Source of the DNA: Candidatus Hydrogenedens sp.
Lineage (GTDB): Bacteria; Hydrogenedentota; Hydrogenedentia; Hydrogenedentales; JAEUWI01
DNA length: 64,000 nt
Assembly: GCA_016125095.1 (NCBI GenBank)
Contig: WGMK01000010.1
Span: 331,336-395,335 of the forward strand
Reading direction: 5' to 3'
Below are positions 2,286-57,792 of the stretch, one piece after another. Position numbers and translations under genes: made by a program. The notes under the pieces are model-generated. The model made no database searches. It was given only the letters and a program-made list of their open reading frames with translations, and was not told the origin of the DNA. The stretch's first letter is position 1. Every line of letters starts with the position of its first letter.

Positions 2286-2589
2286 CAACACGGGCTTTGC
2301 TCCGTACCGCAAGGAATGCGTTAGCTTAGTGTTAGCTGCAGCACGGAAGCAAGACCTGCCGGAAATCGGGCGATTGTAACTTCGCATTCATACGGCGCAA
2401 GGGCTTGCGCAGGTGCCCGATTTTTGTCACTTTCACCCGCCAACAGCGAACGATTTTCGCCATTTGTCAGGTGCCGGATCTCGGGGTAGAATCCCCTCGT
2501 GCTTGCCGGGGCAGACGGCAAGCAGCGGGCCGCGGGCGACGTTCTCCCAAGCGGCTTCCGGCTACGAGGGCTGTACCGGGGATTGGTCT

Positions 2590-9906: not shown

Positions 9907-9976
9907 GGGGCCTCCTTTTCTCGGTGCGGGCGGTCGCCAGCTCCACATCTGCCCGCTCTCGGGCGGGAAAATTGCG

Positions 9977-11128
9977 TCAAAATGCGGGAGTGTTGATGTA
10001 TCGGATAAGTGGTGTCGCCAGGCCCGGCTGCCAGCCCAACGCGCGCAGAAACATACGGACCGCGAGGGGATACCGGAGCAAGGTGGCCACCCCGCGGCAC
10101 ACCAATTGCCGCGAACCGACATGCCCGCGATAAACGTTGCGCCACTCTTGGAGCGGCAGGGGGACATCGTGCGATACCGCGTGTTCCACGAGCGGTGCTA
10201 CGGCGTATCCCGAGGTAAGCGCCCAGGCCATGCCTTCGCCGGTGAACGGCTCTATGTACCCGGCCGCGTCTCCCAGCACAAGCACGCGCTCTGCTCCTAG
10301 CACGGTGGCCCGCCGAGTCAGCGGCGGAGTGCCTTTCCATTTCGTGCTCGCTTCCACAGGTACAGGGGCGTACCCGGCGCTCATCAGAATCTTGTTCGCT
10401 GCATCGGCCGGCCCGTTGCACTCGCGCAGGAAACTTGGGTCAAAGGCGGCTGCCACGTCGATACGGCCTGCTTCAACCATCGCCGCGCCGACATAGCCGC
10501 CCACGGCAATCGCCATACGGATTACGCCAGGCTCTATCCGCACGGAACCCGCGGGCAACACTGTTCCTGCGCCTACGCGCGCGTCCGCCGCGATACGGGG
10601 TTCATGTCCCGCGCTGCGCAGGGTGCCGCCATGCAGGCCATCGGCCGCGAGCACCGTGCGCGCACGGACCGTTTTCTGGCCGTCGTCTGAATACAGCGTG
10701 ACGATACGGTGTCCGCCATCGACGTCTCCCAACACCGCCTTTGTACCGTCTACAAAACACCCGCCGGCGTCAATGACAGCTTCACTCATCAGGGTATCCA
10801 GCGCGGCGCGCGAAATGCTCAGCCCCGTCGGTACAGCGAGGCGGATTCTCTGATCCGTGGTCGCAAGTTCCAGCGCAGCCTGTGACACCGCGCCTGCCTG
10901 CACCACCGCGTCTCGCATGCCGAGCCGCATCAAAATATCAATGGCACGCTGATTCAGGCAGCCGCCGCATACCTTGTCGCGTGGAAAGCGTGCCCGCTCC
11001 ACAAGCAGAACGCGGAGATTCAATTGCGAAAGTCTGAGCGCTGCAGCAGTTCCCGCGAGACCTGCGCCGATAATCAGGCAGTCCCAAGGCTCGTCGTTGA
11101 GCAATTGGAAGTCGATGGCATTTTCCAT
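9977..11128 (-). CDS. FAD-dependent oxidoreductase, geranylgeranyl-reductase/flavin hydroxylase family
   Basis: N-terminal GxGxxG dinucleotide fold DCLIIGAGLAGTAAALRL and FPRDKVCGGCL motif typical of the geranylgeranyl reductase family. Lies immediately between the methyltransferase and type III PKS genes on the same strand. Confidence 0.7.
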   Translation of the reverse strand: MENAIDFQLLNDEPWDCLIIGAGLAGTAAALRLSQLNLRVLLVERARFPRDKVCGGCLNQRAIDILMRLGMRDAVVQAGAVSQAALELATTDQRIRLAVPTGLSISRAALDTLMSEAVIDAGGCFVDGTKAVLGDVDGGHRIVTLYSDDGQKTVRARTVLAADGLHGGTLRSAGHEPRIAADARVGAGTVLPAGSVRIEPGVIRMAIAVGGYVGAAMVEAGRIDVAAAFDPSFLRECNGPADAANKILMSAGYAPVPVEASTKWKGTPPLTRRATVLGAERVLVLGDAAGYIEPFTGEGMAWALTSGYAVAPLVEHAVSHDVPLPLQEWRNVYRGHVGSRQLVCRGVATLLRYPLAVRMFLRALGWQPGLATPLIRYINTPAF

Positions 11129-33740: not shown

Positions 33741-36700
33741 TCAGATCCCCCCGCCGGTGTCTTTGGTCTTCGCGGCGGCGCGCCGGTGCGCCAGCAAATA
33801 CAGGATCGGCAGCACGAACAAGGTGAGGATGGTGTCCGTCACCACGCCGCCCACGACGACCGTCGCGAGTGGGCGCTGCACTTCCGCGCCGACGCCCGTC
33901 GACAGCGCCATTGGAATGAAGCCGGCCGCGTCGGTGATAGCGGTAGCGAGCACCGGCCGCAGCCGCTGCTTGCCGGCCTCGACGATCGCCTCGCCCAGTC
34001 CTTGGCCCTCGTTCCGATAGGCGCGGATGGCTGCGACGAGCACCTGCCCGTTGAGCACGGCGATGCCACTGAGCGCGATGAAGCCGACCGCCGCGCTCAC
34101 GCTGAACGGAATGCCGCGCGCGTACAGCGCCAGCACGCCGCCGATGGCCGCGAAGGGCACGCCGCTGTAGATGATGAGCACATCGCGCAGGCTGCCCAGA
34201 CTGAAGAACAGCAGCATGAACACGAGCAGCAGCGTGAGCGGCACGATGATGGCGAGCCGCTGCTGGGCGCGCTCGAGGTTCTCGAACTGGCCGCCCCAGT
34301 CGATCACGTAGCCCTCGGGGAGGTCCACCTGCGCTTCAATCTGCTGGCGTGCCTCGTCCACGAAGGATGCCACGTCCCGGCCGCGCACATTGGTCTGCAC
34401 GCGTATCAGGCGCCGGCTCCACTCGCGGTTGATGGTCGACGGACTCTCCGTCACGCGCAGGTCGGCCAGCTGGTTCAGTTCGAAAAGGCCGCCCGATTCC
34501 GTGGCGACGCGCGCCTTGGAGAGCGCGTCGAGATCCTCGCGGTAGCGGTCCGGCAGGCGTAGCACCAGCGGGAATACCCGCTGGCCCTCATAAATCGCGC
34601 CGACCTCGGTGCCGCCGAGCGCGGCGACAAAGTCGAGCACGTCCCCCGTGGGGATGCCGTAGCGCGCGGTGCGGGCCTCGTCCACGTCCACCTGCAGGGT
34701 CGGCTGCCCGGTAATCTGGTCCACGGAGATATCCGCCGCGCCTTCGATGCCGCCGAGCACGGTTTGCACTTCGTCGGCGATGCGCACGAGTTCGTCGAAA
34801 TCGTCGCCGAAGATCTTGATGCCGAGGTCCGACCGGATGCCCGCCGCCATCTCGTTCATGCGCAACTCGATGGGCTGCGAGTACGACATGTTCACGCCGG
34901 GCAGATCCGCCAGCGAGGCCTGGATCTTGGCCACCAGTTCATCTTGGCTCGAGGCCTTGGTCCATTCCTCGCGCGGCTTCAGGGTCATGAACATATCGGT
35001 CAGCTCGATGCCCATCGGGTCCGTGGCGACCTCCGCCACCCCGATACGGCTCCAGACGTATTTAATCTCGTCGGGAAAGTTATCGAGTATCAGCTGCTCG
35101 ATGCGCGTGTTGTACTCGGTCGATGCTGGAATGGCGACGCCCGCGAGCCGCACGATGTTGGCCACGGCCGCGCCTTCGCTAAGCCGGGGCGTGAATTCGC
35201 CGCCCAGCCGCGAAGCGTACACCCCGGCCACAATCGCCAGCGCCGCTGTGCAGACGAGGATGGGCCCCCGAGCGACCAGCGCGCCTCGAAGGAGTGCCCC
35301 GTAGCCTGCGGTCATCCAGTGGCCCAGACCCTTGCGCTCCGGTCTCAGGTTCCACGGCAGTGCGTAGTACGAGAGCACGGGGGAGAGGCACAGCGCCACA
35401 GCGAGCGCGCCGCCCAGCGCCAACATGAAGGTGAACGCCATCGGCCGGAACATCTTGCCTTCGACGCCCTCGAGCGCGAGAATCGGCAGAAATACGATGG
35501 CGATGATGCCCATGCCGAAGCCGATCGGCCGCGCCACTTCCTTGCTCGAATGCACGATGCACGCGATGCGCTCGGCCGCGGTCAGCTTGCGCCCTTCGCG
35601 TTCCTGCGATTCGCGCAGGCGGCGCAGGTTCGCCTCGGTCATCACCACGCTGCCGTCCACCAGGATGCCGAAGTCGATCGCGCCCAGGCTCAGCAGGCTC
35701 GCCGCGATGGACAGCTCGAACATGCCCAGCGCCGCGAACAGCATCGCCATCGGCACCGTCACCGCCACCAGCAGCCCCGCCCGGAAATTGCCCAGCAGCA
35801 CGAACAGCACCACGACGACCAGCAGCGCGCCCATCGCGAGGTTGTGCTCGACCGTGCCGATCACTTCCGATACCAGTTCCGTGCGGTCGTAGACCACGGT
35901 GACGTTAATGTCGTCGGGCAGCGCCTTGGCTGCAGCCTGCAGGCGATCACGCAGCGCCGCCGTCACCTCGTTGCTGTTCTCGCCCAGCAGCATGAAGCCG
36001 AGACCCATTAGCGCCTCGCCCTGTCCCTGAAACGTCACCGCGCCCTGCCGGATCTCATGGTCGAGCCGCACTTCCGCCACGTCCCGCACGCGCACCGGGG
36101 AGCCCTCGTGCGCATCGATGACGATGCCGCCGATCTCCTCGATGCTCGATACGCGCCCGAGGCCGTGTACCAGCAGGGCCTCGCCGCTGCGGGTCAGCTG
36201 GCCGCCGCCCACATTCTGGTTGTTGCGCCGCAGCGCTTCTTCCACCTGCGCCAGCGTCAGGCCGTATTTGATGAGCGCATCGGGATCCGTGATGACGTGG
36301 TACTGCTTCTTGAAGCCGCCCCAGCTGTTTACTTCGGCCACGCCCGGCACCTTCAGCAGCTCCGGCTTAATGACCCAGTCGTGCGGTTCGCGGATTTCCG
36401 TGAGCGTGCGGTCGGGGTTGTCGGAGCGCAGCACATAGTGCAGCACTTCGCCGAGTCCGGTGGAAATGGGGCCGAGCTGCGGACGCCCGATACCCTCAGG
36501 CAGCTCGACAGTATTGAGCCGCTCGGTCACGAATTGCCGGGCGTTGTAGATGTCGGTGCCGTCTTCGAACACCGCCACCACTTGCGAGAAACCGAACTTG
36601 GAGACCGAGCGGGATTCCTCCAACCCGGGCAGCCCCGATATCGCCAGCTCGATCGGCAGCGTGATCTGCTGCTCGATTTCGAGTCCGTTCAAAGCCGGGG

Positions 36701-36857
36701 CGGTCGTGTTGATTTGCACCTGCACGGGCGAGGTGTCGGGAAACGCGTCGATCGGCAGCTGCGTCAGCCGCCACGCGCCGACGGCGCAGACGATCGCGAA
36801 GCCCGCCACCACGAGCAGGCGGTTGTGCAGCGAATAGGTAACGATTCTCTCAAGCAT
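33741..36857 (-). CDS. czcA: Heavy-metal efflux RND transporter (HME-RND, CzcA/CusA family)
   Basis: 1038 aa with 12-TM RND topology. TM4 motif AIDFGILVDGSVVMTEAN, resembling the HME-RND A-x5-DFG-x3-DGA-x3-VEN signature. Confidence 0.85.
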   Translation of the reverse strand: MLERIVTYSLHNRLLVVAGFAIVCAVGAWRLTQLPIDAFPDTSPVQVQINTTAPALNGLEIEQQITLPIELAISGLPGLEESRSVSKFGFSQVVAVFEDGTDIYNARQFVTERLNTVELPEGIGRPQLGPISTGLGEVLHYVLRSDNPDRTLTEIREPHDWVIKPELLKVPGVAEVNSWGGFKKQYHVITDPDALIKYGLTLAQVEEALRRNNQNVGGGQLTRSGEALLVHGLGRVSSIEEIGGIVIDAHEGSPVRVRDVAEVRLDHEIRQGAVTFQGQGEALMGLGFMLLGENSNEVTAALRDRLQAAAKALPDDINVTVVYDRTELVSEVIGTVEHNLAMGALLVVVVLFVLLGNFRAGLLVAVTVPMAMLFAALGMFELSIAASLLSLGAIDFGILVDGSVVMTEANLRRLRESQEREGRKLTAAERIACIVHSSKEVARPIGFGMGIIAIVFLPILALEGVEGKMFRPMAFTFMLALGGALAVALCLSPVLSYYALPWNLRPERKGLGHWMTAGYGALLRGALVARGPILVCTAALAIVAGVYASRLGGEFTPRLSEGAAVANIVRLAGVAIPASTEYNTRIEQLILDNFPDEIKYVWSRIGVAEVATDPMGIELTDMFMTLKPREEWTKASSQDELVAKIQASLADLPGVNMSYSQPIELRMNEMAAGIRSDLGIKIFGDDFDELVRIADEVQTVLGGIEGAADISVDQITGQPTLQVDVDEARTARYGIPTGDVLDFVAALGGTEVGAIYEGQRVFPLVLRLPDRYREDLDALSKARVATESGGLFELNQLADLRVTESPSTINREWSRRLIRVQTNVRGRDVASFVDEARQQIEAQVDLPEGYVIDWGGQFENLERAQQRLAIIVPLTLLLVFMLLFFSLGSLRDVLIIYSGVPFAAIGGVLALYARGIPFSVSAAVGFIALSGIAVLNGQVLVAAIRAYRNEGQGLGEAIVEAGKQRLRPVLATAITDAAGFIPMALSTGVGAEVQRPLATVVVGGVVTDTILTLFVLPILYLLAHRRAAAKTKDTGGGI

Positions 36858-36869
36858 GCTGCACCCCGC

Positions 36870-38297
36870 TTAATGGTCGGCGCAGCCCGCGCCGAGGCGG
36901 GCCTTGAGAAATTCGCCCTTGAGGATGTGGCTTCCCTGCAACGCGACGGTCTCGTCGGGCGACAGGCCGGCCGCCACGTACACGCGGCCGTCTTCCTTGT
37001 CGCCGAGCCGCACCAGGCGGGCGTCGTAGAGATCCTCGTCGAGCTTCACGAAAACCATTGGGCGGCCGTCCACATCCTGCACGGCGGACGCGGGCAGCGA
37101 TACCCCGGCGGTCTCCGTGCCCGCGAGCGTGGCTTCGCCGAACAGGCCGTCGCGGAGTTGTCCTTGCGGATTGTCCAGCACGGCGCGCGCCTCGACGGTG
37201 CGGGTCTGCGGATCCACACGATAGGCCAGCCAGGTCAGGGTGCCCGGGAAAACGAGATCGGGGTAAGCCTCGAAGCGCGCCTGCACCGGCGCGCCCACGG
37301 CCACCTGCCCCAGCTGCGCTTCCGGAATCGCGAGCTTCATCCACATCTGCGACAGGTCCGCCACGCGGAACAGCACGGTGCCCGTCTCGACGTTGTTGCC
37401 GATTACGGCCTGCCGGTCCACCACGGTACCGGCGAAGGGCGCGCGGATGGGGAGCAAGGGGCCAGCCTCGCGGCTGCGGGTCACGGCCTCGGCCTCCTCG
37501 GCGCTCAGGCCGAGATTCATCAGGTGCTGCCGTGCATGGTCCACTTCCGTCGCGGCGGCCTGCGCCTCGGCGCGTGCACGTTCCAGGTCCTGCCGCGCCG
37601 AAATCTCCCGGGCGTGCATGTCCTGTTCGCGGGCGAGCACCTGCCGCGCCAGGTCGGCGTCGGCCAGCGCCTTTACGTACGCGCTCTTGGCCTCCGCCAC
37701 GGCGTGCGAGCTGACCGTCGCGAGCAGCTGTCCGGCCTTCACCTGATCGCCCACGTCGGCTGCCACTTCGGTGATGATGCCCTGGCCGAGCGGCGTCACC
37801 ACGGCCAGATGATTACCGTCGAAGGTGACTTCGCCCAGTAGATGCTGCACGCGCCGCCCCGTACGGCTCTCAGGCTTGCCCACTTGCACGCCCGCCTTGG
37901 TCAGCGATTCCGCCGAGCCAAATCGCACTTTCATGCCATCGCCCACCGCGCGCTCGCCGATGCTGGCGGAGCTGCAGATGCCGCATTCGGCTTCCGGCAA
38001 ATCGTGCTCGCCGCACCAGGCCACGCCATCGCGCATGGAATGTCCGTGCCCGTCGTCGTCGCCGTGGTCGTGCCCTTCGTGGTCGGAATGATCGTGAGCA
38101 TCGTCCTCAGCATGGGCGTCAGCATCGTCGTGTCCATGGTCTGCGTCGTGATCATGATCGTGGTCATGGCCGGACTCTTCGTGTCCGTGTTCGTCTTGAT
38201 CCTGTGCGAAGACCTCCGCCGTGCAGCCCGCATACAGCGAGGCCGCGAGGCACAAGGAAAGCCATCCAGCGAACCAGATCCAGTTATTTGTCGTCAT
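36870..38297 (-). CDS. czcB: RND efflux membrane fusion protein (CzcB/CusB family) with His/Asp-rich N-terminal metal-binding extension and CxxC
   Basis: ATG at 38297 (MTTNNWIWFAGWLSLCLAASLYAG). Segment HGHEESGHDHDHDHDADHGHDDADAHAEDDAHDHSDHEGHDHGDDDGHGH then CGEHDLPEAECGIC. HlyD-like beta-barrel and lipoyl domains follow. Confidence 0.75.
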   Translation of the reverse strand: MTTNNWIWFAGWLSLCLAASLYAGCTAEVFAQDQDEHGHEESGHDHDHDHDADHGHDDADAHAEDDAHDHSDHEGHDHGDDDGHGHSMRDGVAWCGEHDLPEAECGICSSASIGERAVGDGMKVRFGSAESLTKAGVQVGKPESRTGRRVQHLLGEVTFDGNHLAVVTPLGQGIITEVAADVGDQVKAGQLLATVSSHAVAEAKSAYVKALADADLARQVLAREQDMHAREISARQDLERARAEAQAAATEVDHARQHLMNLGLSAEEAEAVTRSREAGPLLPIRAPFAGTVVDRQAVIGNNVETGTVLFRVADLSQMWMKLAIPEAQLGQVAVGAPVQARFEAYPDLVFPGTLTWLAYRVDPQTRTVEARAVLDNPQGQLRDGLFGEATLAGTETAGVSLPASAVQDVDGRPMVFVKLDEDLYDARLVRLGDKEDGRVYVAAGLSPDETVALQGSHILKGEFLKARLGAGCADH

Positions 38298-39844: not shown

Positions 39845-40225
39845 TCAGATGAGGAGGCAGGCCGTCCGTTGAAAGAAGGGTTGCGGTGGCAGGGTATGCC
39901 GGGCCACGGGCACCAGTCCGGGCGCGGACGGTGCAAGCGGAAGCTCCAGCATGGTTACCGCGGCCGCAGGCACCTGAGGCGCCGGCGCGCTGTACGGTGC
40001 GGCGGCAGGCAGGGCTTCGGCGAAATCGCCGCCGATGGGCAGCGGGATATCGGTGCAGGGCTCAGGCTCCACGGGGGCGGGAGTCTCGTCGCAGCAGGTC
40101 GAGGGCAAGCACTCGCGCTCCAGTGCCACATGCCCATCGCCTCCCAGGCACAACACCATGCCGTCTGCACCCGCGGGCAATACCGCGAGTACAGCGAGTA
40201 GCAAGGTGAGGGTGCGTTGAATCAT
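39845..40225 (-). CDS. Small secreted Cys-rich, Pro/Ala-rich hypothetical protein (possible periplasmic metal-binding accessory of the czc operon)
   Basis: ATG at 40225 (MIQRTLTLLLAVLAVLPAGADG signal peptide). Cys cluster CLGGDGHVALERECLPSTCCDETPAPVEPEPC. Lies 72 nt upstream of czcC on the same strand. Confidence 0.4.
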   Translation of the reverse strand: MIQRTLTLLLAVLAVLPAGADGMVLCLGGDGHVALERECLPSTCCDETPAPVEPEPCTDIPLPIGGDFAEALPAAAPYSAPAPQVPAAAVTMLELPLAPSAPGLVPVARHTLPPQPFFQRTACLLI

Positions 40226-40251: not shown

Positions 40252-40962
40252 CTACGCGCGCAGGATAGCGCCCCGCCGACTCCGGATCAACCGGGTCAGC
40301 GCCAGCGCCGCCAGCACCGTGGCCGCGGCGGCACCAAGCCATGCGCCCAGCGGCAGCGCCTGCGTCGGCGCATTCCCGGCAAACACGCCCTCGTTCCGGA
40401 ATGTTCCCCCGTTCTCGAACACGCCGTGATTCTCGATTTGCCCCGTGTTATGCAGCGTGCCCCGGCATTCCAGGGTGCCCACATTGTCCAGCATGGCGCC
40501 ATTCTGGAACTCGCCCAAAGGCCCAACCGCCAAGCGGCCGTGATTGATGAGGTTTATCCGCGCAGTGGTCTTGTCGGGATCGCGTATCGCGATGCGACCG
40601 TCCGTGCGCAGGATCCCCGTCGTGCCCACGGTTACCTCGCAGCCCTCGAAATCGCAGGAGGCATCCGTGTCGATAGCGAGCAGCCCTTCAAGGACGACCG
40701 TGGTGTTGGTCGCGATGAGGTGCCCCAGAACGGAAAGCACGCCGTCAATGCGGAGGGGGGTATTCACCGTAACGAAGTCGCCCGAGAGTACCGTTACCTC
40801 GTCTCCGGGCGCAGGCACAGTTTGCCCGGCCCAAGTCGAATCGGATTCCCAGGGCCCCCCGCCCGTACCATTCGTTACCAAGGATGCTGCATTCGCCGAA
40901 CTGGACACGAGGCCCAGCACGGCACACATGATTGCCCAACCACGAGCCATGCCGTACTCCAA
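40252..40962 (-). CDS. Secreted beta-helix-like repeat protein with C-terminal PEP-CTERM-like (variant) anchor
   Basis: Signal peptide MARGWAIMCAVLGLVSSSANA. Gly/Asn/Thr-rich short repeats (GTLHNTGQIENHGVFENGGTFRNEGVFAGN). C-terminus ALPLGAWLGAAAATVLAALALTRLIRSRRGAILRA. Confidence 0.5.
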   Translation of the reverse strand: MEYGMARGWAIMCAVLGLVSSSANAASLVTNGTGGGPWESDSTWAGQTVPAPGDEVTVLSGDFVTVNTPLRIDGVLSVLGHLIATNTTVVLEGLLAIDTDASCDFEGCEVTVGTTGILRTDGRIAIRDPDKTTARINLINHGRLAVGPLGEFQNGAMLDNVGTLECRGTLHNTGQIENHGVFENGGTFRNEGVFAGNAPTQALPLGAWLGAAAATVLAALALTRLIRSRRGAILRA

Positions 40963-41022: not shown

Positions 41023-41880
41023 CTACCAGGCGCCGACTTTCCCCAGCAGCCAGTTGCTCAATTCCGCACGGCGCACGTCGGGGTTCGCAAGCCCCGCGTC
41101 ATTCAGGGGATCATTCGCGGTCACGCGCCCTGCAGCACGCCGCGCATCAAACGAACTGTAGCGCTCCATCTCCGCATGCACCTCGTCGACATCGCGGAAC
41201 AGTCCCTCCGCCAAGAGCGCATTCGTTAGCCGGTCCAGCACCCGCGCCATGGTGGCATGGTCGAACTCCGGATGGTATTGCACCGCCCAGAGCGAAGCAT
41301 CGCCGTCGTCGTAGGCGAAGGACTGCACGGCGCACATGTCGTTGCACGACAACACGACCGCGCCCCGGGGCAATTCCGCCACCTCGTCCACATGCACGGC
41401 AAAGGCCGAGAACTTGCGCGGCTTTCCGGCATACATGGGGTGCGCGTGCCCCGCGTCCGTCAGGGTAATTCCGGTTGCGATGCCGATTTCGCGGCCCTTG
41501 GGATTGGCGCGCACCTTGCCGCCGAGGATCGTCGCGAAAACCTGTAGCGCCCAACAGCTGCCGAAGGCCGGCACGCCGGCCTGCATCACCCGTTCGGCCA
41601 GCCTGAGTTGCTCCGTCACCGCGCCATGCGCGTCATACACATTCAGCGCCGACCCCGTCCAGATTGCGCCGTCGAAATCAGTCAGGGCCAGTCCGTCGGG
41701 CAGGCAATCAGCGCCCTCGTCGGCCGGGCGCACGATGGTGCAGGCCGTGCCAGGCGCGATTTCGTCCACCAGCGCCGCGTACCACTCGCCGTAGGGCGTG
41801 CCGCCGACCGCCGCGATTTTGCCGCTCACCTCCCGCGTGTTGCCCTCGACAATCAGCACCCGCCGCCGCATTTGTTCCAT
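41023..41880 (-). CDS. Class I glutamine amidotransferase-like hydrolase (PuuD/gamma-glutamyl-amide hydrolase-like, peptidase C26 family)
   Basis: Nucleophile-Cys context GSCWALQ and His context QYHPEF (type 1 GATase triad). Last gene of a four-gene same-strand cluster with the GS-like synthetase, Fe-ADH and ALDH. Confidence 0.7.
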   Translation of the reverse strand: MEQMRRRVLIVEGNTREVSGKIAAVGGTPYGEWYAALVDEIAPGTACTIVRPADEGADCLPDGLALTDFDGAIWTGSALNVYDAHGAVTEQLRLAERVMQAGVPAFGSCWALQVFATILGGKVRANPKGREIGIATGITLTDAGHAHPMYAGKPRKFSAFAVHVDEVAELPRGAVVLSCNDMCAVQSFAYDDGDASLWAVQYHPEFDHATMARVLDRLTNALLAEGLFRDVDEVHAEMERYSSFDARRAAGRVTANDPLNDAGLANPDVRRAELSNWLLGKVGAW

Positions 41881-41898
41881 GGGTCTGCGCGGCTCCGC

Positions 41899-43272
41899 TC
41901 AGATGATTTCGAAGTACCGCTGGAGTTCCCAGTCGGTAATCGCCTTGCGGAATTCGCGCTCTTCCCACTCGCGCGATTGCGCGTAGTGCTCCACAAAATC
42001 CGTGCCGAAGATGGTGTGCGCTTCTTCTGATTTCCGCAGCCGTCCCGCCGCCTCGTACAGCGTTGCAGGAAGCGACAGCCGCTTGGCGTGCTTGCCCTCG
42101 TAGGCATTGCCGATGACGGGTGGAGTCGGTTCAATCTTATGTTCGATGCCCCACAGCCCCGAGCCCACAGCCGCCGCCATGGTGATGTAGGGATTCGCGT
42201 CGGCTGCGGCAATGCGGTATTCCACGCGCTGGCTCGAGGGCCCGCCGGGTATCGCGCGCAAGGCGCAGGTGCGGTTCTCGATGCCCCAAGTCGCCGCCGT
42301 CGGCGCCCAGAAACCAGGGATCAATCGGCTGTAGCTGTTCACGGTGCAGGCCACCATCGAAAGGAACGACGGCATCAGCGCTTGCTGCCCGCCGATGAAC
42401 CAGCGCATCTCGTCCGACATGCCGTGTTCGCCCGAGGGATTGTGGAAGACCGGCTTGCCCTTGGACTGAAGCGACAGGTGCAGGTGGCCGGATTGACCCG
42501 GCCAGTCCTTCGACCACTTCGCCATGAACGTCGCCATCCATCCCCGGCGCTGCGCGAGCACCTTGGTAAACGTCTTGAAGAGCGCTGCACGGTCGGCGGC
42601 CTCCAGTCCCTGCGCATGGCAGATGGCGGCCTCGAGCACGCCCGGACCGGTCTCCGTGTGCAGGCCTTCCAGCGGATAGCCCATGGCCTCGCAGAGATGC
42701 AGCAGCTCGTGGTAAAACTCGGCATGCACCGAGTTGCGCAGCATCGAGTACCCGAAAAATCCGGGTGTGATCGGCTTGAGGTTCTTGTAATCCTTTTCGC
42801 GTACCGTATCGGGCGATTCCTCGAAGAGGAAGAACTCGTACTCGAAGGCGCCGGTGACCGAATAGCCCATGCCCGCCGCCCGATCGAGCACGCGCCGCAG
42901 CACGCCGCGCGGGCAGATGGCCTCGGCCTGCTCGTCGAACTCGCCCAGGAACAGCAGCGTGCCCGGTTCGAAGGGGATCTTTCGGCAGGACTCCGGAATG
43001 ATGCGGACCGGGGCGTCCGGGTAGGCCGTATGCCAGCCCGTATACTTCGCGCTGTCGTACAGCTGGTCGTGGCTGTCCCAGCCCAGCACCACATCGCAGA
43101 AGCCGAAGCCCTTCTCGAGCGAGGAGAGAAACTTGTCGCGCTGCATGTACTTGCCGCGCATGATGCCGTCCACGTCGAATACGCCGACCTTGACGTATCG
43201 AATCTCCTGCTCGTTGAGCAGTTGCTTAATCTTCTCGATTCTCATCGTCCCGCCCTTCCCTTGCTTCGGCAT
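41899..43272 (-). CDS. Glutamine synthetase family protein (type I-like gamma-glutamyl-amine synthetase, PuuA/GlnA3-like)
   Basis: GS beta-grasp N-domain and catalytic C-domain motifs (GFEYEFFLF, NxY, SYSRLIPGFWAP, ENR). Start may be the internal ATG at 43245 (MRIEKIKQL). Confidence 0.75.
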   Translation of the reverse strand: MPKQGKGGTMRIEKIKQLLNEQEIRYVKVGVFDVDGIMRGKYMQRDKFLSSLEKGFGFCDVVLGWDSHDQLYDSAKYTGWHTAYPDAPVRIIPESCRKIPFEPGTLLFLGEFDEQAEAICPRGVLRRVLDRAAGMGYSVTGAFEYEFFLFEESPDTVREKDYKNLKPITPGFFGYSMLRNSVHAEFYHELLHLCEAMGYPLEGLHTETGPGVLEAAICHAQGLEAADRAALFKTFTKVLAQRRGWMATFMAKWSKDWPGQSGHLHLSLQSKGKPVFHNPSGEHGMSDEMRWFIGGQQALMPSFLSMVACTVNSYSRLIPGFWAPTAATWGIENRTCALRAIPGGPSSQRVEYRIAAADANPYITMAAAVGSGLWGIEHKIEPTPPVIGNAYEGKHAKRLSLPATLYEAAGRLRKSEEAHTIFGTDFVEHYAQSREWEEREFRKAITDWELQRYFEII

Positions 43273-43275
43273 CGT

Positions 43276-44454
43276 CTACGCAGCAGCCACCGGTTCCGGC
43301 AGTTCGCCTGCCAGCGCGCATTCGAAAATCGTCTGGTACTGCGCCGGGGTCAGCGCAATCGGATTGCCGCCCGCCGAAGGATCCTCGATGGCGAGGCGTC
43401 CCACCTCTTCCGCCTGGTCCCCCGGGATACCGAGCGAGGCCAGCGTATGCGGAATGCCGATCTCTTCGCGCAGCGCCAGCACCCAGGCAATCAGGCCGTC
43501 CAGGCTCGCCTTTAGCCCCAGACAATTCGCCAGATAGGCGGCATCGTCCGCGATCGCGTTGCGGTTGGCCGACAGCACATAGGGCATCAGCACGGCGTTC
43601 AGCATCCCGTGGTGCGCGTTGTAGAGCCCGCCCAGCGTGTGGGCCAGGGCATGCATGCCGCCGAGCCCGCGCTGAAACGCCGTCGCCCCCGCCTGCGACG
43701 CCGCCAGCATGTGCGAACGCGCCTCGATGTTGCCGCCATCTTGCACCGCAGTGGCCAGGTTTTCTTTCACCAGCCGCATGCCTTCCACCGCTATACCGCG
43801 TGCGAAGGGATGGTAGAACGGCGCGAAGAAGGCCTCCATGCTATGCGAGAGCGCATCCATGCCCGTGGCGGCGGTAATGCCCGCCGGCAGTCCGGTCGTC
43901 AGTTCCGGGTCCGAAAGCGCGATCCGCGGCAGCATCGTCGGGTGGAAAATGATCCGCTTGCGGTGCGCCGTCTCGTCGGTGATGACGCTCGCTCGGCCCA
44001 CTTCCGAGCCGGTGCCGGAAGTCGTCGGCACGGCCACCACCGGCACCAGGTTCTCCGTGGTCGCGCGCAGCCAGTTGTCGCCGATGTCTTCGAAATCCGC
44101 TATCGGGCGGTTCTGTCGCGCCATGAACGCAATCGCCTTGGCCGCGTCCACGCCGCTGCCGCCGCCGAATGCAATGACGCCGTCATATCCGCCCGCCCGG
44201 AACGCCGCGGTTCCAGCCTCTACCTGCGTTTCGGTCGGATTGCCGCTTACATCGCTGAAGACTCCACAGTCGAGTCCATCAGCCTTGCACGCGGCGACCG
44301 CCGCCTTGGTGATAGCGTGTTCCGCCAGGCCCGAATCCGTAACCAGCAGCGGACGCTGCATGCCCAGTTCGCGGCAGCAGGCCGCCAGTTCACTGATACG
44401 GCCCGCCCCGAAGCGGACGGTCGTCGGGTAATTCCAGTTGCCGCGCAGGTTCAC
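43276..44454 (-). CDS. Iron-containing (group III) alcohol dehydrogenase
   Basis: GGGSGVDAAKAIA NAD-binding motif and metal-binding His clusters typical of Fe-ADH. Confidence 0.75.
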   Translation of the reverse strand: MNLRGNWNYPTTVRFGAGRISELAACCRELGMQRPLLVTDSGLAEHAITKAAVAACKADGLDCGVFSDVSGNPTETQVEAGTAAFRAGGYDGVIAFGGGSGVDAAKAIAFMARQNRPIADFEDIGDNWLRATTENLVPVVAVPTTSGTGSEVGRASVITDETAHRKRIIFHPTMLPRIALSDPELTTGLPAGITAATGMDALSHSMEAFFAPFYHPFARGIAVEGMRLVKENLATAVQDGGNIEARSHMLAASQAGATAFQRGLGGMHALAHTLGGLYNAHHGMLNAVLMPYVLSANRNAIADDAAYLANCLGLKASLDGLIAWVLALREEIGIPHTLASLGIPGDQAEEVGRLAIEDPSAGGNPIALTPAQYQTIFECALAGELPEPVAAA

Positions 44455-44470
44455 GCGCTTACTCCTTGTG

Positions 44471-45856
44471 TTACTTGGTGGAAACGCGGAAGTGAAAGGA
44501 CTTCGGACGCGTCAGTTGTTCAAAACCCAGACGACTCAACGTGCAGCCGCGTCCCGTATTCTTCACCCCGGTCCACGCGAGGTCGGGGTCCAGATAATCG
44601 CATCGGTTCAGAAATACCGTGCCCGTGGCAATGCGGTCGCCCAGCGCCAGCGCGGCGTCCACGTCCTCGCTCCAGATGCTCGCCGTCAGGCCGAGGTCGC
44701 TGTCGTTCATCAGCGCGACGGCCTCCTCGTCGGACTGCACCTTCATGATGCCGGCCACCGGGCCGAAGGTCTCCTCGTTCATCACGCGCATCGAGTGGTC
44801 CACATCCACCAGCAGCTGCGGTGCCAGGTAGGGCGTGCCCTCCCGGTTTTCCGCGAAGCCCGCCGGATCCACCAGCGCCTTGGCGCCGGCCGCCACGGCC
44901 TCGGCCACCTGCCCGCGCACGAAATCCGCGGCGGAAGTCCGCACGCAGGGCCCCAGCGTCGTGGCCTCGTCCAGGGGGCTGCCCAGCACGTATTGCTTCG
45001 TCAGCTCGACCGCGCCCTCGACGAACGCGTCGTAGACGTCGGCATGCACGTAAATCCGCTCGACGCCGCAGCAGCTCTGACCGGAATTGAAGAAGGCGCC
45101 ATCCACGACATTTTCGATGGCATGCGCGAGGTTGGCGTCGTGGCGCACATAGGCCGGGTCTTTACCGCCGAGTTCGAGGCCCACTGGAATGAACCGGCCC
45201 GCAGCCGCTTCTTCAATCTGCGCGCCGCCGGGCACCGAACCCGTAAACGCGACGCCCCCGATGGCGGGCTCCTTGATGAGCTTCGCCGTTTGCGCGCGGC
45301 TCAGGTGTAAAAACTGAAATAAGCCCTCGGGCAGTCCTGCCGCCCGGCCGGCTTCCACAAACCGCTCGGCGCACAAAGGCGTCTGATGCGAATGCTTGAG
45401 CAGCACCGCATTACCCGCCATCAGCGCCGGAATCACGCTATTCACCGAAGTCAGGTAGGGGTAGTTCCACGGGGCCACCGTCAGCAGCACCCCGATGGGC
45501 GTGCGCCGGATAAAACGCTGGAATCCCGGTTTCTCGGGCATGCCGAGGTCGGCCAGCGCTTCAGGTGCCAAGGCAATCATCTTGCGGGCGCGCTCTTCAA
45601 AGCCCCGGACTTCGCCCAGCCCGTAGCGCACCGGCCGGCCCATCTGCCAGGCCAATTCGTCGCGGTGGGTATCTCCTTGCGCCACAAAGGCATCCACCAA
45701 GGCCCCGCACAGGCGCGCCCGTTCGTCAATACTCGCAGAGGCCCACGATCTCGCCGCCGCATCGGCGCGTTCCAGGGCTTGGGTTATCTCGTGGTCGGCG
45801 GCTTCCGGGCGCTCGCAGTAGAGCGAGCCATCCACCGGGGAAATGCATTGAATCAA
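44471..45856 (-). CDS. NAD(P)-dependent aldehyde dehydrogenase
   Basis: ALDH motifs LELGGKDP, catalytic Cys in NSGQSCCGVERIYV, EETFGPV. Confidence 0.8.
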   Translation of the reverse strand: MIQCISPVDGSLYCERPEAADHEITQALERADAAARSWASASIDERARLCGALVDAFVAQGDTHRDELAWQMGRPVRYGLGEVRGFEERARKMIALAPEALADLGMPEKPGFQRFIRRTPIGVLLTVAPWNYPYLTSVNSVIPALMAGNAVLLKHSHQTPLCAERFVEAGRAAGLPEGLFQFLHLSRAQTAKLIKEPAIGGVAFTGSVPGGAQIEEAAAGRFIPVGLELGGKDPAYVRHDANLAHAIENVVDGAFFNSGQSCCGVERIYVHADVYDAFVEGAVELTKQYVLGSPLDEATTLGPCVRTSAADFVRGQVAEAVAAGAKALVDPAGFAENREGTPYLAPQLLVDVDHSMRVMNEETFGPVAGIMKVQSDEEAVALMNDSDLGLTASIWSEDVDAALALGDRIATGTVFLNRCDYLDPDLAWTGVKNTGRGCTLSRLGFEQLTRPKSFHFRVSTK

Positions 45857-46028
45857 CGGCGTTCTCCTGTCGTCGCGTCAGCCGAATTTCGACCGCATAG
45901 TCTAGGCTTCTTGCATGGCGCAATCAACCGCGCGACGGACGGCCAAGCATTCAGCAGGCTTGCAGAAATATGCGATTTATGTTGTAATGCCTATGGTGTT
46001 TTAGGGTGCCTAGACGGGAGGTCTGAGT

Positions 46029-47069
46029 GTGGAAGCTGGGAAATCCGCTTCCGAGGAGTCGCGCTTGGACATTTACGAGGGAATTTTTGAATGCGCGCCC
46101 GATGCGATGCTGGTCGTCGGCGGCGATGGCATCATCGCCAAGGCAAACCAGACGGCGGAGCGTATGTTCGGCTATGAGCGCGGGGCTCTGGCCGGCGCTT
46201 CGGTCGAGTCGCTGATCCCGCGCCGCTTCACCTCGCGCCATGTACAGCACCGCTCGGAATACTTCTCGGAGCCCAGGACGCGTCCCATGGGCGAAGGCCT
46301 CGACTTATTCGGCCTGCGGAATGACGGCACCGAGTTTCCCGTCGATATCATGCTGAGCCCCATGAAGACCGAGTCCGGTCCGGTGATACTCTGTGTCGCG
46401 CGCGATTGCACGGACCGCAAGCGCGCGGAGTCGCTTATCCTCGAGTCGCTTCGCGAGAAGGAAGTTCTCATCAAGGAAATCCACCACCGGGTGAAGAACA
46501 ACCTTGCCGTCATGTCCAGCCTGTTCTATCTGCAGTCAACGTATACGCATGACGAGCCGACGATAGAGATTCTTCGCGAAAGCCAGGATCGGGTGCGCTC
46601 CATGGCGCTGGTGCACGAGTCACTTTATCAGTCCGGCAACTTCTCCGCCGTAAACTTCGCGGACTACGCGGTGAACCTCAGCGAACAGCTTATCGGCGCC
46701 TATACCATGCCTACAGGGCGTATCAAGCTCATCTCCAATGTCGAGTCCGTGCAGCTCAATATGGAATTGGCGGTGCCGTGCGGACTGATTCTCAACGAAA
46801 TCGTGACGAACGCCCTCAAGCATGCATTTCCGCACGGATACCCCGGCGAAATTCAGTTGAACCTGCGCACGCTGGACACCGGCGATATCGAGTTGTGCGT
46901 CATCGACAACGGCGTAGGCATCACCGACATGTTCGATCCCGATGCGTCGCCCACGCTCGGACTTAGGCTGATACGTCTACTCGCCCGCCAAATCGATGGC
47001 GATTTCCGGATGTCCGCCAGGCTGCCCGGTACCGAGGTCTGCCTGAAAGTGCCGGCGCTGCATGGATGA
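46029..47069 (+). CDS. PAS-domain sensor histidine kinase, HWE/HisKA_2 type
   Basis: GTG start. PAS fold (FECAPDAMLVVGGDGIIAKANQTAERMFGYER). H-box EIHHRVKNNLAVMSSL typical of HisKA_2/HWE kinases. Overlaps the next kinase gene by ATGA. Confidence 0.7.
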   Translation: MEAGKSASEESRLDIYEGIFECAPDAMLVVGGDGIIAKANQTAERMFGYERGALAGASVESLIPRRFTSRHVQHRSEYFSEPRTRPMGEGLDLFGLRNDGTEFPVDIMLSPMKTESGPVILCVARDCTDRKRAESLILESLREKEVLIKEIHHRVKNNLAVMSSLFYLQSTYTHDEPTIEILRESQDRVRSMALVHESLYQSGNFSAVNFADYAVNLSEQLIGAYTMPTGRIKLISNVESVQLNMELAVPCGLILNEIVTNALKHAFPHGYPGEIQLNLRTLDTGDIELCVIDNGVGITDMFDPDASPTLGLRLIRLLARQIDGDFRMSARLPGTEVCLKVPALHG

Positions 47070-50000
47070 TTACCAGCATCGAACATAGCATCTTGAGCGT
47101 ACTGGTCGTGGAGGACGAGGCCCTGATCGCCGAGGAAATCTCCGACCGGCTGCAGCGGCTTGGCTACCTCGTCGCGGGAATCGCCGACAACGCGGAGTCC
47201 GCTATTGAAATCGCTTCCCGCGAGCGGCCTGACGTTGTGCTCATGGACATCAGCATCAAGGGCGCTGACGATGGCGTGGAGACAGCGCGCAAAATCTACG
47301 CCGAACTCGATATTCCCGTGGTGTTCCTCACGGCCCATTCCGACGAGGTGACTTTCGCGCGCGCGATGTCGGCGGCATCCTTCGGCTACGTGCTCAAGCC
47401 CTTCCACGAGCGCGACCTCCTGTCTGCGGTCAAGGTCGCCCTGCATCGCCATCACACCGAACAGTACCTGCGGGACAGCGAACTGACCTATGCAACCATT
47501 GCCGCGAACGTTGCCGATGGCATCATCGCGCTAGATGCCGATGCGCGCGTCCGATATCTCAATCCCGCTGCCGAATCCATGCTGCGCATTGAAGGGGCGG
47601 ATTCGATTGGCCAGCCGCTCGAGTCGGTGCTGCGATATACCACCCTCACGGGCGACGGTATCGACGCGGGCATGGTGTCCGCCGTGCTGACCTCGGGCGA
47701 GCCGTCCCAGAACTCGGAATGGGAAGTGCTTCAGGCAGACGGGGGCAAGCTGATAGCGGAGGCCAACGTAACGCCGATCCGGGGAGGCGGAGGGACCGTC
47801 AAGGGCGCAGTGATTGCCCTGCGCGATATCACCGAGCGCAGGAGACAGGAGTCGGCCCTGCGCGAAAGCGAAGAACGCTGGCAGTTCGCCCTCGAGGGCG
47901 CGGATGACGGCGTGTGGGACTGGGATGCTTCCAGTAATTATGCCTATTTCAGCCCCGGCTGGAAGGCCATGCTCGGCTATGCGGAACATGAGATCCCGGG
48001 TACCTACGAGGCGTGGGAGTCGCTCATTCATACCGACGACCGCGAAGGCGTGCTCAAGTCGCTGGACGAGTTGTTGAGCGGAAGGCAACCGAACTACGCC
48101 GTCGAGCATCGGCTCCGGTGCCACGACGGCTCGTACAAGTGGGTGCTCGCCCGCGGCAAGGTAGTCGCTCGCGATGCGGAAGGCGCCGCCCTGCGCATCG
48201 TCGGCACGCACACCGACCTCAGCGAAATGAAAGAGGCGATGCACACGCTCCAAGAGAGCGAAAGCCGGTTCCGGGCGCTTATCGAGGACCTTGCTGTCGG
48301 GGTGGTGTTGCAGGATCCGGACGACCGCGTGACCCTTATTAATCGTGCCGCCAAACAAATCCTCGGCATCGATCTCGATCGCGACCGAAATATCGGGTCG
48401 TCGGATCCACGCTGGAACTTGACGCGGGAAGACGGTGCGACGCTGCTGCCGGAGGACGCTCCTTCTGTGATTGCAGCGAAGACGCTGGTTCCTGTGCGGA
48501 ATCAGGTGCTCGGGGCCTGCAACCTGGAGACAGGAGAACGAAAGTGGCTGCTGGTCACGGCCGCACCGAGACTTTATGAAGATAATTTGCTCAAGCACGT
48601 CCTCGTGACGATTGCGGACATTACCGCTCAGAAGCAGACGGAACAGGCGCTGCGCGAAAGCGACGAGCGCGTGCGGGCGTTGAACGAGCGCTTTGTGCTC
48701 GCCGCCGATTCCGCGGGTATCGGTGTCTGGGAATACAACGCGCAATCGGGTGCCGTCGTTTGGGACGAGCAAATGCACCGGTTGTTTGGCTTGTCGCGGG
48801 AAGATTTCGAGGGTACCTACAAGGCTTGGGTGAGTTGTATTCATCCGGACGATGGCGCAGCGTTCCACTCCGCGATGAAGACGGCCATGGCGGGAAGCGG
48901 TTTCCTCGACATCGAATACCGGATCAAGCTGCCCGACAATGTCGAACGCCATTTGCGTGCCTGTGCCCGGGTGCTTCCCGGCAAGGACGGCCAATCCCTG
49001 CGGATTGCGGGCGTACATATCGACATGACCCGGCAGCGCCAGCTGGAGCGGCGACTTCTCCAGGGGCAGAAAATGCAGGCCATCGGCCAGCTGGCCGGCG
49101 GCGTCGCGCATGACTTCAACAACCTGCTTACCGTAATTTGCGGTTACAGCGACATGATGCTCGGGGAACTCATGGACTCCGCGCATCCGCTGCGCCCCTT
49201 CGTGGAGGCCATGCACGAAGCCGGGGAGCGTGCCGCGCGTCTGACCCAGCAATTGCTGCTCTTCGGCCGCAAAGCCGATCAGCGACTGGAAACGTTCAGT
49301 CTCAATGATTTGCTTCAGGACATGCACCGCATGCTGCGCAGGCTTATCGAGGAAAGCATTGCGATCGAGGTTGCACCGCAACCCGACTGCAAATCGGTCT
49401 TGGCCGATCGCACCCAGCTGGAGCAGGTGATCCTGAACCTGTGCCTGAATGCCCGGGACGCCATGCCCCGGGGCGGCAATTTAGTACTATGCACCCGGGA
49501 CGCGACACCCGAGGAAGTGGCAGCACCGCGCACACCGGGCGATCACGTGGTACTTCTGGTGAAGGACGATGGCCTGGGCATGTCGCCCGAAGTGAAAGAC
49601 CGTCTGTTCGAGCCCTTCTTCACCACCAAGGGCGCCGGTCAGGGCACCGGGCTGGGCATGGCCACGGTGTATAGCGTCGTCGAGCAGGCAGGCGGGTTCA
49701 TCGAAATTGAAAGCGAGCCCGGTGAGGGCACCGAAGTTCGTGTATATCTGCCCGTGGCCGATGCCTGGGTGACTGCGGCGGCGGCGGCCAAGGCGCAAAG
49801 GAAAGTAAAAGGCAACGGCGAAACGATTCTGCTCGTGGAGGATGAGGATGAAGTGCGCCGCGTCGGCCGCCTCATTCTTGAACAATCGGGCTTTACAGTG
49901 ATCGAGGCCGAGAGTGCCATGGAGGCACTGGGCAAATACGATGCCCACGAGGGGCGGGTCGATATGCTCGTGACCGATGTGGTCATGCCGCAAATCAATG

Positions 50001-50185
50001 GCCGCGAATTGGCCGAGCGTCTGCGCGCCAAGAAGCCCGATCTCATAGTGCTCTTCGTAAGCGGCTACAATGAGGATGCCGTACTACGCCAGGGTATTTC
50101 CGACACCACTACGGGCTTCCTTTCCAAGCCCTTCAGCCATCACGAATTCGCACTGCGTGTCTGGGAGGCGCTCCAGAAGCGCTGA
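47066..50185 (+). CDS. Hybrid sensor histidine kinase/response regulator (REC - multiple PAS - HisKA - HATPase_c - REC)
   Basis: N-terminal receiver (VLVVEDEALIAEE...DVVLMDISI). Three or more PAS/PAC modules. H-box AGGVAHDFNNLLTVI. G-boxes DDGLGM...GTGLGM. C-terminal receiver (ILLVEDEDEVR...DMLVTDVVMP). Confidence 0.8.
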   Translation: MITSIEHSILSVLVVEDEALIAEEISDRLQRLGYLVAGIADNAESAIEIASRERPDVVLMDISIKGADDGVETARKIYAELDIPVVFLTAHSDEVTFARAMSAASFGYVLKPFHERDLLSAVKVALHRHHTEQYLRDSELTYATIAANVADGIIALDADARVRYLNPAAESMLRIEGADSIGQPLESVLRYTTLTGDGIDAGMVSAVLTSGEPSQNSEWEVLQADGGKLIAEANVTPIRGGGGTVKGAVIALRDITERRRQESALRESEERWQFALEGADDGVWDWDASSNYAYFSPGWKAMLGYAEHEIPGTYEAWESLIHTDDREGVLKSLDELLSGRQPNYAVEHRLRCHDGSYKWVLARGKVVARDAEGAALRIVGTHTDLSEMKEAMHTLQESESRFRALIEDLAVGVVLQDPDDRVTLINRAAKQILGIDLDRDRNIGSSDPRWNLTREDGATLLPEDAPSVIAAKTLVPVRNQVLGACNLETGERKWLLVTAAPRLYEDNLLKHVLVTIADITAQKQTEQALRESDERVRALNERFVLAADSAGIGVWEYNAQSGAVVWDEQMHRLFGLSREDFEGTYKAWVSCIHPDDGAAFHSAMKTAMAGSGFLDIEYRIKLPDNVERHLRACARVLPGKDGQSLRIAGVHIDMTRQRQLERRLLQGQKMQAIGQLAGGVAHDFNNLLTVICGYSDMMLGELMDSAHPLRPFVEAMHEAGERAARLTQQLLLFGRKADQRLETFSLNDLLQDMHRMLRRLIEESIAIEVAPQPDCKSVLADRTQLEQVILNLCLNARDAMPRGGNLVLCTRDATPEEVAAPRTPGDHVVLLVKDDGLGMSPEVKDRLFEPFFTTKGAGQGTGLGMATVYSVVEQAGGFIEIESEPGEGTEVRVYLPVADAWVTAAAAAKAQRKVKGNGETILLVEDEDEVRRVGRLILEQSGFTVIEAESAMEALGKYDAHEGRVDMLVTDVVMPQINGRELAERLRAKKPDLIVLFVSGYNEDAVLRQGISDTTTGFLSKPFSHHEFALRVWEALQKR

Positions 50186-50438
50186 CCCACCCGTAGTGCC
50201 GCCCTTCGGGGCGCCTTGCCCCGGCAATACCCCTTCGTACGTATGTCAACAATCCCGGCTTTCGCTGGCGGGAACCCAGTGAAATCACCATTTTCATATA
50301 ATGTAGGTATCTATGGGATTGCGATTTTTTCGGGATACCCGTATAATTCCGTCGGGCTTGTAAGGCTTCCGTCTCAATCAGCGAGACCACGGAAGCCGTA
50401 GTAACGCGAGCCATCAGATACCCGCAGAATGAGGTCGT

Positions 50439-57644: not shown

Positions 57645-57792
57645 TGAAGCACCCCAAGCGAAAAAAGACAGCCCACGACAGGGCTGTGGCCGGATACCCC
57701 CGCGACCGGCTTTTGCCCATATTCGCAGTATATCATGCTTCTTGAAGATTGCCAAGAGGGCGAAGGCGGCGCTTGACATTTTGTTTAGCTGA

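Follow-up and report, generated by a model that had tools for sequence, protein, structure and literature searches.

A probable gamma-glutamylation operon for ethanolamine catabolism in Candidatus Hydrogenedens sp.

Results

Four adjacent genes with the make-up of a probable amino-alcohol pathway

We analysed a stretch of 64,000 nucleotides of Candidatus Hydrogenedens sp. (phylum Hydrogenedentota; assembly GCA_016125095.1, contig WGMK01000010.1, positions 331,336 to 395,335), referred to here as the window. Positions 41023-45856 of the window are filled by four open reading frames (ORFs) running in the same direction on the minus strand, which encode an aldehyde dehydrogenase (ALDH), an iron-containing alcohol dehydrogenase (Fe-ADH), a glutamine synthetase (GS)-like ligase and a class I amidotransferase-fold hydrolase. 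These genes probably form an operon for the catabolism of ethanolamine, or of a closely similar short primary amino-alcohol, independent of B12 and of microcompartments (probability about 0.68). This proposal builds on what the sequences show: the families of the enzymes, catalytic residues that are intact, a ligase that has lost its ammonium site, the linkage of the four genes and the linkage of orthologous loci to ethanolamine transporters.

The substrate, the order of the steps and the substrate of the hydrolase are modelled on the published pathway. The ligase would use ATP to join ethanolamine to the gamma-carboxyl of glutamate, giving gamma-glutamyl-ethanolamide. The NAD-dependent Fe-ADH would then oxidise the free hydroxyl to gamma-glutamyl-aminoacetaldehyde, and the ALDH would oxidise this aldehyde to gamma-glutamylglycine. 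Finally, the Cys-His-Glu enzyme of amidotransferase fold would cleave the gamma-glutamyl amide, releasing glycine and returning glutamate. The features of the locus are as follows:

45857..46028, no strand assigned: divergent intergenic region 5' of the operon, 172 bp, bounded by the ALDH start and the divergent PAS-HisKA_2 kinase gene; presumed promoter/operator region
45856..44471, minus strand: aldehyde dehydrogenase, 461 aa (Pfam Aldedh, E 8.9e-117)
44454..43276, minus strand: iron-containing alcohol dehydrogenase, 392 aa (Pfam Fe-ADH, E 3.9e-50; ADH_Fe_C, E 2.7e-35)
43245..41899, minus strand: GS-like ligase, 448 aa from the second ATG, the likelier start; maximal ORF 43272..41899, 457 aa (Pfam Gln-synt_C, E 2.9e-97)
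41880..41023, minus strand: class I amidotransferase-fold hydrolase, 285 aa (Pfam GATase, PF00117, E 5.7e-14)

Gene calls made independently on a public contig with the same sequence gave these four genes too, with the ligase starting at the second ATG (window position 43245). The genes are separated by 16, about 30 and 18 nt (the middle gap is 3 nt if the first ligase ATG is used). The ALDH start codon is TTG, with an AGGAGA ribosome-binding box 6 nt upstream. Co-transcription of the four genes is favoured by the 16-30 nt gaps and by their conserved adjacency. The 172-bp upstream region contained no sigma-70-like promoter, inverted repeat or Rfam match; no convincing intrinsic terminator was found, and the sole Rfam match (SECIS_2, E 0.17) was inside a coding region. 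None of the four proteins reached an NCBIfam equivalog cut-off and, therefore, current curated models do not name them.

The cluster had been described in a first-pass annotation made from the sequence alone, and the ORFs, the Pfam matches and the independent gene call bear that description out. It was also correct that no transporter or regulator lies inside the cluster; none for the module was found anywhere in the 64-kb window.

The module is conserved in other genomes

A genome scan identified 515 stretches encoding relatives of the ligase, and linkage was counted in the best 80 of them (64-77% ligase identity). Several of the 80 loci without a complete module end at contig edges. The four genes were adjacent in 35 of the 80 loci and the ligase, ALDH and Fe-ADH in 23 more (58/80 in total); because of these counts, the linkage exceeds chance. 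The amidotransferase accompanied the module in 35-39 of the loci. Carriers include Hydrogenedentota, many Alpha- and Gammaproteobacteria and others, plus a Legionella plasmid. The commonest order was ligase-ALDH-FeADH-amidotransferase (32 loci), while the order ALDH-FeADH-ligase-amidotransferase was found in the window and in two of the three loci from Hydrogenedentota metagenome-assembled genomes, the third of which ends at a contig edge.

When the ligases of the window, of loci L001-L004 and of P0025 were compared, those of Hydrogenedentota were as close to alphaproteobacterial ligases (74-75% identity) as to each other (74-77%). Since identity across phyla equals identity within the Hydrogenedentota, a fairly recent horizontal transfer of the module across phyla is suggested by these sequences.

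The same four genes are on the Legionella lytica plasmid pLlyPCM2298_1 (L086, 7971-12618), where they are labelled 'glutamine synthetase', 'aldehyde dehydrogenase family protein', 'iron-containing alcohol dehydrogenase' and 'GMP synthase'. The name 'GMP synthase' for the module amidotransferase is likely a misannotation that probably recurs elsewhere. A separate arrangement was seen on plasmid pBVIE01 of Burkholderia vietnamiensis G4 (L083, 7902-12847), with an RpiR regulator followed by ligase-ALDH-class I amidotransferase, without Fe-ADH and with IS66 and IS3 transposases on its flanks; it may represent a module copy that was truncated or mobilised, carried by a conjugative plasmid.

The ligase has lost the ammonium site of glutamine synthetase

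Aligned with E. coli GlnA, the ligase keeps the residues for metal, ATP and glutamate (E129, E131, E212, E220, G265, H269, H271, S273, R321, R339, R344, E357 and R359). The ammonium site is not retained: Trp replaces the flap residue E327, Pro replaces N264 and Lys replaces S53, and Y179 falls in a gap. E327 is also replaced in IpuC (Trp), in the Csal_0679 type (Phe) and in PuuA (Tyr). The ligase scored 219.7 bits against the GlnA model TIGR00653 (cut-off 429.15) and 188.5 bits against the GGputSyn model (cut-off 650), and was below every NCBIfam cut-off.

The ligase has 38% identity to IpuC, 31-32% to the Csal_0679 type (PDB 5dm3), 31% to PuuA and 26% to E. coli GlnA, compared to 49-77% within its own clade. 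A protein recorded for a 'Candidatus Hydrogenedens sp.' metagenome-assembled genome matches it with 100% identity. In plasmid records, ligase identity falls sharply from 53-63% to below 40%. In a neighbour-joining tree the ligase stands in a group of its own beside IpuC, distinct from PuuA, GlnA and the Csal_0679/11zs group, which has a bootstrap of 100. Orthology to the Csal_0679/MED193_10046 type is not borne out by the 31-32% identity and the separate clade.

Because the ammonium-site residues are replaced, the score is under the GlnA cut-off and the clade is separate, these sequence comparisons indicate that the ligase is not a true glutamine synthetase. A place among bona fide GlnA proteins had been named beforehand as one of two findings that would refute the pathway; the protein has lost the ammonium residues and stands outside GlnA in the tree. 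Its predicted role is that of a glutamate-ethanolamine ligase, an ATP-dependent gamma-glutamyl-amine ligase.

The dehydrogenases resemble those of a known ethanolamine cluster

The catalytic motifs ELGGKDP and FNSGQSCC are present in the ALDH, and the GGGSGVD motif and metal-binding His motifs in the Fe-ADH. The ALDH shares 54% identity with its counterpart in the Chromohalobacter ethanolamine cluster and 55-78% with the ALDHs adjoining orthologous ligases (64 loci). For the Fe-ADH, identity is 51-55% to the enzymes of the Chromohalobacter cluster and 49-73% across 67 syntenic loci. Among themselves, modules of the window type have median identities of 62% (ALDH) and 56% (Fe-ADH), only slightly above their identity to the Chromohalobacter enzymes. 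Both dehydrogenases are far closer to the enzymes of this cluster than to any solved structure or NCBIfam model: among solved structures there was no ALDH match at E 1e-70 or better, and the best Fe-ADH matches were generic methanol and propanediol dehydrogenases.

The top NCBIfam name of the ALDH is succinate-semialdehyde dehydrogenase; against PuuC it scored 192.7 bits (cut-off 850), with 31% identity to the protein. The top NCBIfam match of the Fe-ADH, 4-hydroxybutyrate dehydrogenase (350 bits, cut-off 500), is also that of the Chromohalobacter enzyme. A C4 substrate, as these names would imply, was considered and rejected, given that the dehydrogenases of the Chromohalobacter ethanolamine cluster yield the same top names. 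The Fe-ADH is a putative gamma-glutamyl-ethanolamide dehydrogenase and the ALDH a putative gamma-glutamyl-aminoacetaldehyde dehydrogenase producing gamma-glutamylglycine.

The terminal hydrolase has a Cys-His-Glu triad

The triad of the hydrolase (Cys109, His203 and Glu205, within a PF00117 domain) is invariant in 41 of 41 orthologues, and the enzyme stands alone, without a synthase partner. The earlier label 'class I GATase/peptidase C26' stands in its first half (GATase, E as listed above) and is marginal in its second: the match to Peptidase_C26 scored 22.5 bits, with no stretch passing on its own, and BLASTP detected no similarity to E. coli PuuD (E 0.35), so the hydrolase is not a PuuD orthologue. 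Over its full length it shares 32% identity (E 1e-37) with the type 1 amidotransferase from an Ipu-like ligase/P450 cluster, and over 175 residues it is 31% identical to an amidotransferase in the ipu region of P. aurescens TC1. Among solved structures it matched GMP synthase subunit A (E 8.6e-12) and Arabidopsis gamma-glutamyl peptidase 1 (E 2.3e-10). If it follows the published pathway, it would act as a gamma-glutamylglycine hydrolase, releasing glycine and glutamate.

Transporters and regulators beside orthologous modules

In 14 of the 80 loci the module adjoins a permease with TIGR00908 ('ethanolamine permease') as its best NCBIfam match. The permease of L001, the closest Hydrogenedentota relative, passes the TIGR00908 cut-off (387.1 vs. 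381.75), and the others score 333-367. Another APC permease was present in 11 loci, a TRAP system in five and a divergent RpiR regulator in seven. In four proteobacterial loci (L005, L009, L013 and L073), genes for a zinc alcohol dehydrogenase and for a PLP-dependent (PALP) enzyme were observed upstream of the APC permease and the module.

The Thalassospira locus L004, with a ligase 74% identical to that of the window, has an RpiR regulator followed by DctQ-DctM-DctP-ligase-ALDH-FeADH-amidotransferase, and its TRAP binding protein is 77% identical to PDB 4uab. TRAP binding proteins related to PDB 4uab (62-78%) were found in five loci, and the four compared directly with 4uab were 65-77% identical to it. 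A Chromohalobacter locus, found via the PDB 5dm3 ligase, has an RpiR regulator followed by formylglutamate amidohydrolase (FGase)-DctQ-DctM-DctP-ligase-ALDH-FeADH; its binding protein is 98% identical to PDB 4uab and its ligase 95% identical to PDB 5dm3. A homologue of the binding protein at this locus, Csal_0678/EtoX, is reported to bind ethanolamine (PMC10132767).

The first-pass annotation had named an amino-alcohol such as ethanolamine as the likely substrate of a Puu/Ipu-type gamma-glutamylation route, leading from the gamma-glutamyl-aminoalcohol through the aldehyde to the gamma-glutamyl-amino acid and on to hydrolysis. The published ethanolamine pathway follows this logic, and the proposal gains support from the identity of the dehydrogenases (51-55%) and from the ethanolamine-type transporters in orthologous loci.

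Other neighbours were also recorded. A gene resembling DMGDH/sarcosine dehydrogenase (DAO, FAO_M and GCV_T domains) lies directly after or near ligase-ALDH-FeADH in L064 (14033-16495), L068, L074, L054, L072 and L021; most of these six loci are without a detectable amidotransferase gene, and several end at contig edges. This neighbour hints at a link to the metabolism of N-methylated glycine or ethanolamine. On plasmids of Rhodobacteraceae M382 (L082) and Pseudorhizobium flavum (L091), ligases of 53-55% identity are accompanied by a class III aminotransferase and a Pot-type ABC transporter, without Fe-ADH, and L082 additionally has an N-formylglutamate amidohydrolase and an ALDH. These two loci look like a diamine version of the module.

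Comparison with known gamma-glutamylation systems

A gamma-glutamylation pathway for ethanolamine (PF00120, PF00465, PF00171 and PF05013) has been described for S. coelicolor GlnA4, SCO1611-1615 (PMC6529630, PMC9397018). In C. salexigens and A. tumefaciens, the Chromohalobacter-type cluster is reported to be a working pathway for the use of ethanolamine, and the ethanolamine cluster MED193_10026-10056 was induced in Phaeobacter (PMC10132767). The window shares with this Csal/Eto/GlnA4 pathway the reaction logic, three of the four Pfam families (PF00120, PF00465 and PF00171), a GS-family ligase without ammonium site and the adjacency of a related ALDH and a related Fe-ADH to the ligase. The arrangement of RpiR and TRAP genes is shared by orthologous modules, but not by the window, whose module has no adjoining transporter or regulator. 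It differs further in its ligase, which is only 31-32% identical and in a separate clade, and in its last enzyme: in the known clusters this is a formylglutamate amidohydrolase (PF05013), whereas the window has the Cys-His-Glu enzyme of amidotransferase fold. By tblastn, neither the window nor any of the 80 related loci has a homologue of the PF05013 FGase.

The pairing of a GS-like ligase with a class I amidotransferase is shared with the Ipu isopropylamine pathway, represented by P. aurescens TC1 pTC2 and a plasmid cluster of Agrobacterium leguminum, and IpuC and IpuF are the nearest labelled relatives. Identity to Ipu-like clusters (34-38% for the ligase and 31-32% for the hydrolase) is too distant for a claim of orthology. 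Unlike the Ipu pathway, the window has no P450 (no homologue), ferredoxin or ferredoxin reductase; oxidation would be carried out by the alcohol and aldehyde dehydrogenases on a substrate that is already hydroxylated, and the hydrolase would presumably act after oxidation. The E. coli Puu pathway follows the same plan, in which the amine is gamma-glutamylated, oxidised while protected and deglutamylated, and it includes an ALDH step. By contrast, its proteins are distant or missing: PuuA and PuuC have the 31% identities given above, PuuB is absent and there is no similarity to PuuD.

In aniline and 1-naphthylamine degradation, a GS-like ligase gene also adjoins a class I amidotransferase-fold gene, and the clusters carry ring-hydroxylating dioxygenases. 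The window has an ADH/ALDH pair instead; a general domain scan found no dioxygenase domain among the flanking ORFs, and no search of the window was aimed at dioxygenases.

Since the dehydrogenases match the Chromohalobacter cluster and the ligase and hydrolase are nearer to Ipu-type pairs, the operon looks like a mosaic of a dehydrogenase pair of the known ethanolamine (Csal/Eto) type and a ligase/hydrolase pair of the Ipu type. The logic of the pathway is already known. The combination of ligase and hydrolase appears to be undescribed and to carry generic annotations only, and the A. tumefaciens cluster could already be the same variant. No description of an amidotransferase-containing version of the ethanolamine pathway was found in the literature searched.

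Evidence against ethanolamine and alternative readings

Several observations weigh against ethanolamine catabolism as the function of the four genes. The 64-kb window holds no ethanolamine transporter, RpiR regulator or other substrate marker. The ligase is distant (about 31% identity) from the experimentally linked Csal_0679, and its nearest characterised relative, IpuC (38%), is an isopropylamine ligase. In the Ipu system, the related hydrolase acts on the gamma-glutamyl-aminoalcohol and not on a gamma-glutamyl-amino acid. About a quarter of the complete modules are without amidotransferase, and in these no other candidate for the hydrolase was identified: 13 modules with room on both sides had no amidotransferase by tblastn, and clustering recovered a divergent copy in two of the 13. 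FGase was considered as the alternative last enzyme of these loci, and none was found. Finally, relatives at 53-58% ligase identity adjoin aminotransferases and polyamine-type ABC transporters and, because they keep this company, specificity shifts within the wider ligase clade.

The same logic might serve another amino-alcohol (L-alaninol, 3-aminopropanol, 4-aminobutanol or N-methylethanolamine, giving alanine, beta-alanine, GABA or sarcosine respectively). This would fit a ligase clade that differs from the ethanolamine ligases and has IpuC as its nearest characterised member, the likeness of the ligase/hydrolase pair to Ipu-like pairs and the DMGDH/sarcosine-dehydrogenase-like gene (DAO and GCV_T) that follows the module in a few loci. 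PDB 4xf5, the 4uab binding protein with 2-amino-1-propanol bound, would fit as well. The best NCBIfam names, 4-hydroxybutyrate and succinate-semialdehyde dehydrogenase, also point this way, but they do not discriminate, as the Chromohalobacter ethanolamine dehydrogenases share them. Moreover, orthologous modules adjoin transporters either of the ethanolamine-permease type or of the TRAP type that binds ethanolamine, and we regard a different amino-alcohol as unlikely. A polyamine route of the Puu/Pau type, for putrescine or another diamine, is very unlikely. It would account for the set of GS-like ligase, ALDH and gamma-glutamyl hydrolase-type enzyme, and ligase relatives at 53-55% identity do adjoin class III aminotransferases and Pot-type ABC transporters; however, the window has no homologue of the PuuB oxidase, of an aminotransferase, of PuuD or of PuuP, the oxidation step is held by an alcohol dehydrogenase, and both PuuA (31%) and the PuuC model (192.7 of 850 bits) are remote.

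Two further readings have minimal probability. The public annotations 'glutamine synthetase' and 'GMP synthase' would suit an ordinary GS and a biosynthetic amidotransferase subunit, acting in nitrogen assimilation and placed by chance beside genes for alcohol and aldehyde detoxification. This is hard to reconcile with the lost ammonium site, the score under the GlnA cut-off, an amidotransferase without synthase partner and a four-gene linkage kept across phyla. It is equally improbable that the operon is biosynthetic and produces a gamma-glutamyl amide such as a theanine-like compound or a compatible solute: GS-like ligases can make stable gamma-glutamyl amides and the window has no transporter, but the ligase is conserved together with a hydrolase, two oxidative dehydrogenases and, in relatives, uptake permeases.

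Genes flanking the operon

The operon is followed by two ORFs without family match and an efflux gene set, and four signalling genes diverge from its 5' end:

40950..40252, minus strand: ORF without family match, 232 aa, signal-peptide-like N-terminus, 72-nt gap downstream of the operon
40225..39845, minus strand: ORF without family match, 126 aa
39772..38300, minus strand: OEP of a Czc/Cus-type RND efflux set
38297..36870, minus strand: membrane-fusion protein of the same Czc/Cus-type RND set
36857..33741, minus strand: AcrB-family pump of the same Czc/Cus-type RND set
46029-52769, plus strand: four signalling genes (PAS-HisKA_2 kinase, 1039-aa receiver-PAS-kinase-receiver hybrid, PAS-only protein and kinase-receiver protein)

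The sensor kinases had been noted on the opposite strand, as they are, but placed downstream of the cluster; they lie upstream, diverging from the operon 5' end. The GC content of this signalling stretch is 0.60-0.61, vs. about 0.65. Neither the kinase set nor the downstream ORFs and efflux genes recur beside the module in any of the 80 loci and, because they are not conserved there, the flanking kinases, unknown ORFs and efflux genes were not counted as parts of the module. The divergent PAS-HisKA_2 kinase was considered as the module regulator and rejected, as no homologue was found beside the module in the 80 loci.

Elsewhere the window has typical chromosomal genes (radA-like, pyrF, diaminopimelate/ornithine decarboxylase and a DUF7133-HEAT protein). 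A 1653-aa ORF (52818-57779, minus strand) had no Pfam match at E 1e-5 or better, and a 1675-aa protein (2413-7440, plus strand) matched Big_5, PKD, Ig and, partially, the di-haem cytochrome c peroxidase family CCP_MauG. A type III polyketide synthase with chalcone/stilbene synthase domains adjoins an FAD-dependent monooxygenase (8818-11128, minus strand); this may be a small natural-product locus.

Discussion

Ethanolamine derives from the head groups of phosphatidylethanolamine and is a widespread source of nitrogen and carbon. The classical eut route requires B12 and microcompartments, and the gamma-glutamylation route requires neither. If the variant described here works as proposed, the gamma-glutamylation route has at least two enzyme make-ups, with non-orthologous replacement of the first and last enzymes around orthologous middle steps. 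The variant would be common (the ligase relatives of the scan number 515 stretches) and invisible to annotation, since PGAP names its genes 'glutamine synthetase' and 'GMP synthase'.

A broader interpretation, to which we give some room while judging it doubtful, is that the clade represents a second, independently assembled route for amino-alcohol gamma-glutamylation, combining Ipu-type ligase and hydrolase with Eto-type dehydrogenases and spread horizontally over Proteobacteria, a Legionella plasmid and Hydrogenedentota. Its range may exceed ethanolamine; possible candidates are N-methylethanolamine, converted to sarcosine in the loci with the DMGDH-like gene, alaninol and 3-aminopropanol. 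If this were true, many genes named 'glutamine synthetase' or 'GMP synthase' would point to a catabolic trait that has gone unrecognised. Hydrogenedentota have been proposed to be scavengers of lipids and glycerol, and the pathway, if true, would give this uncultured phylum a concrete use of lipid head groups.

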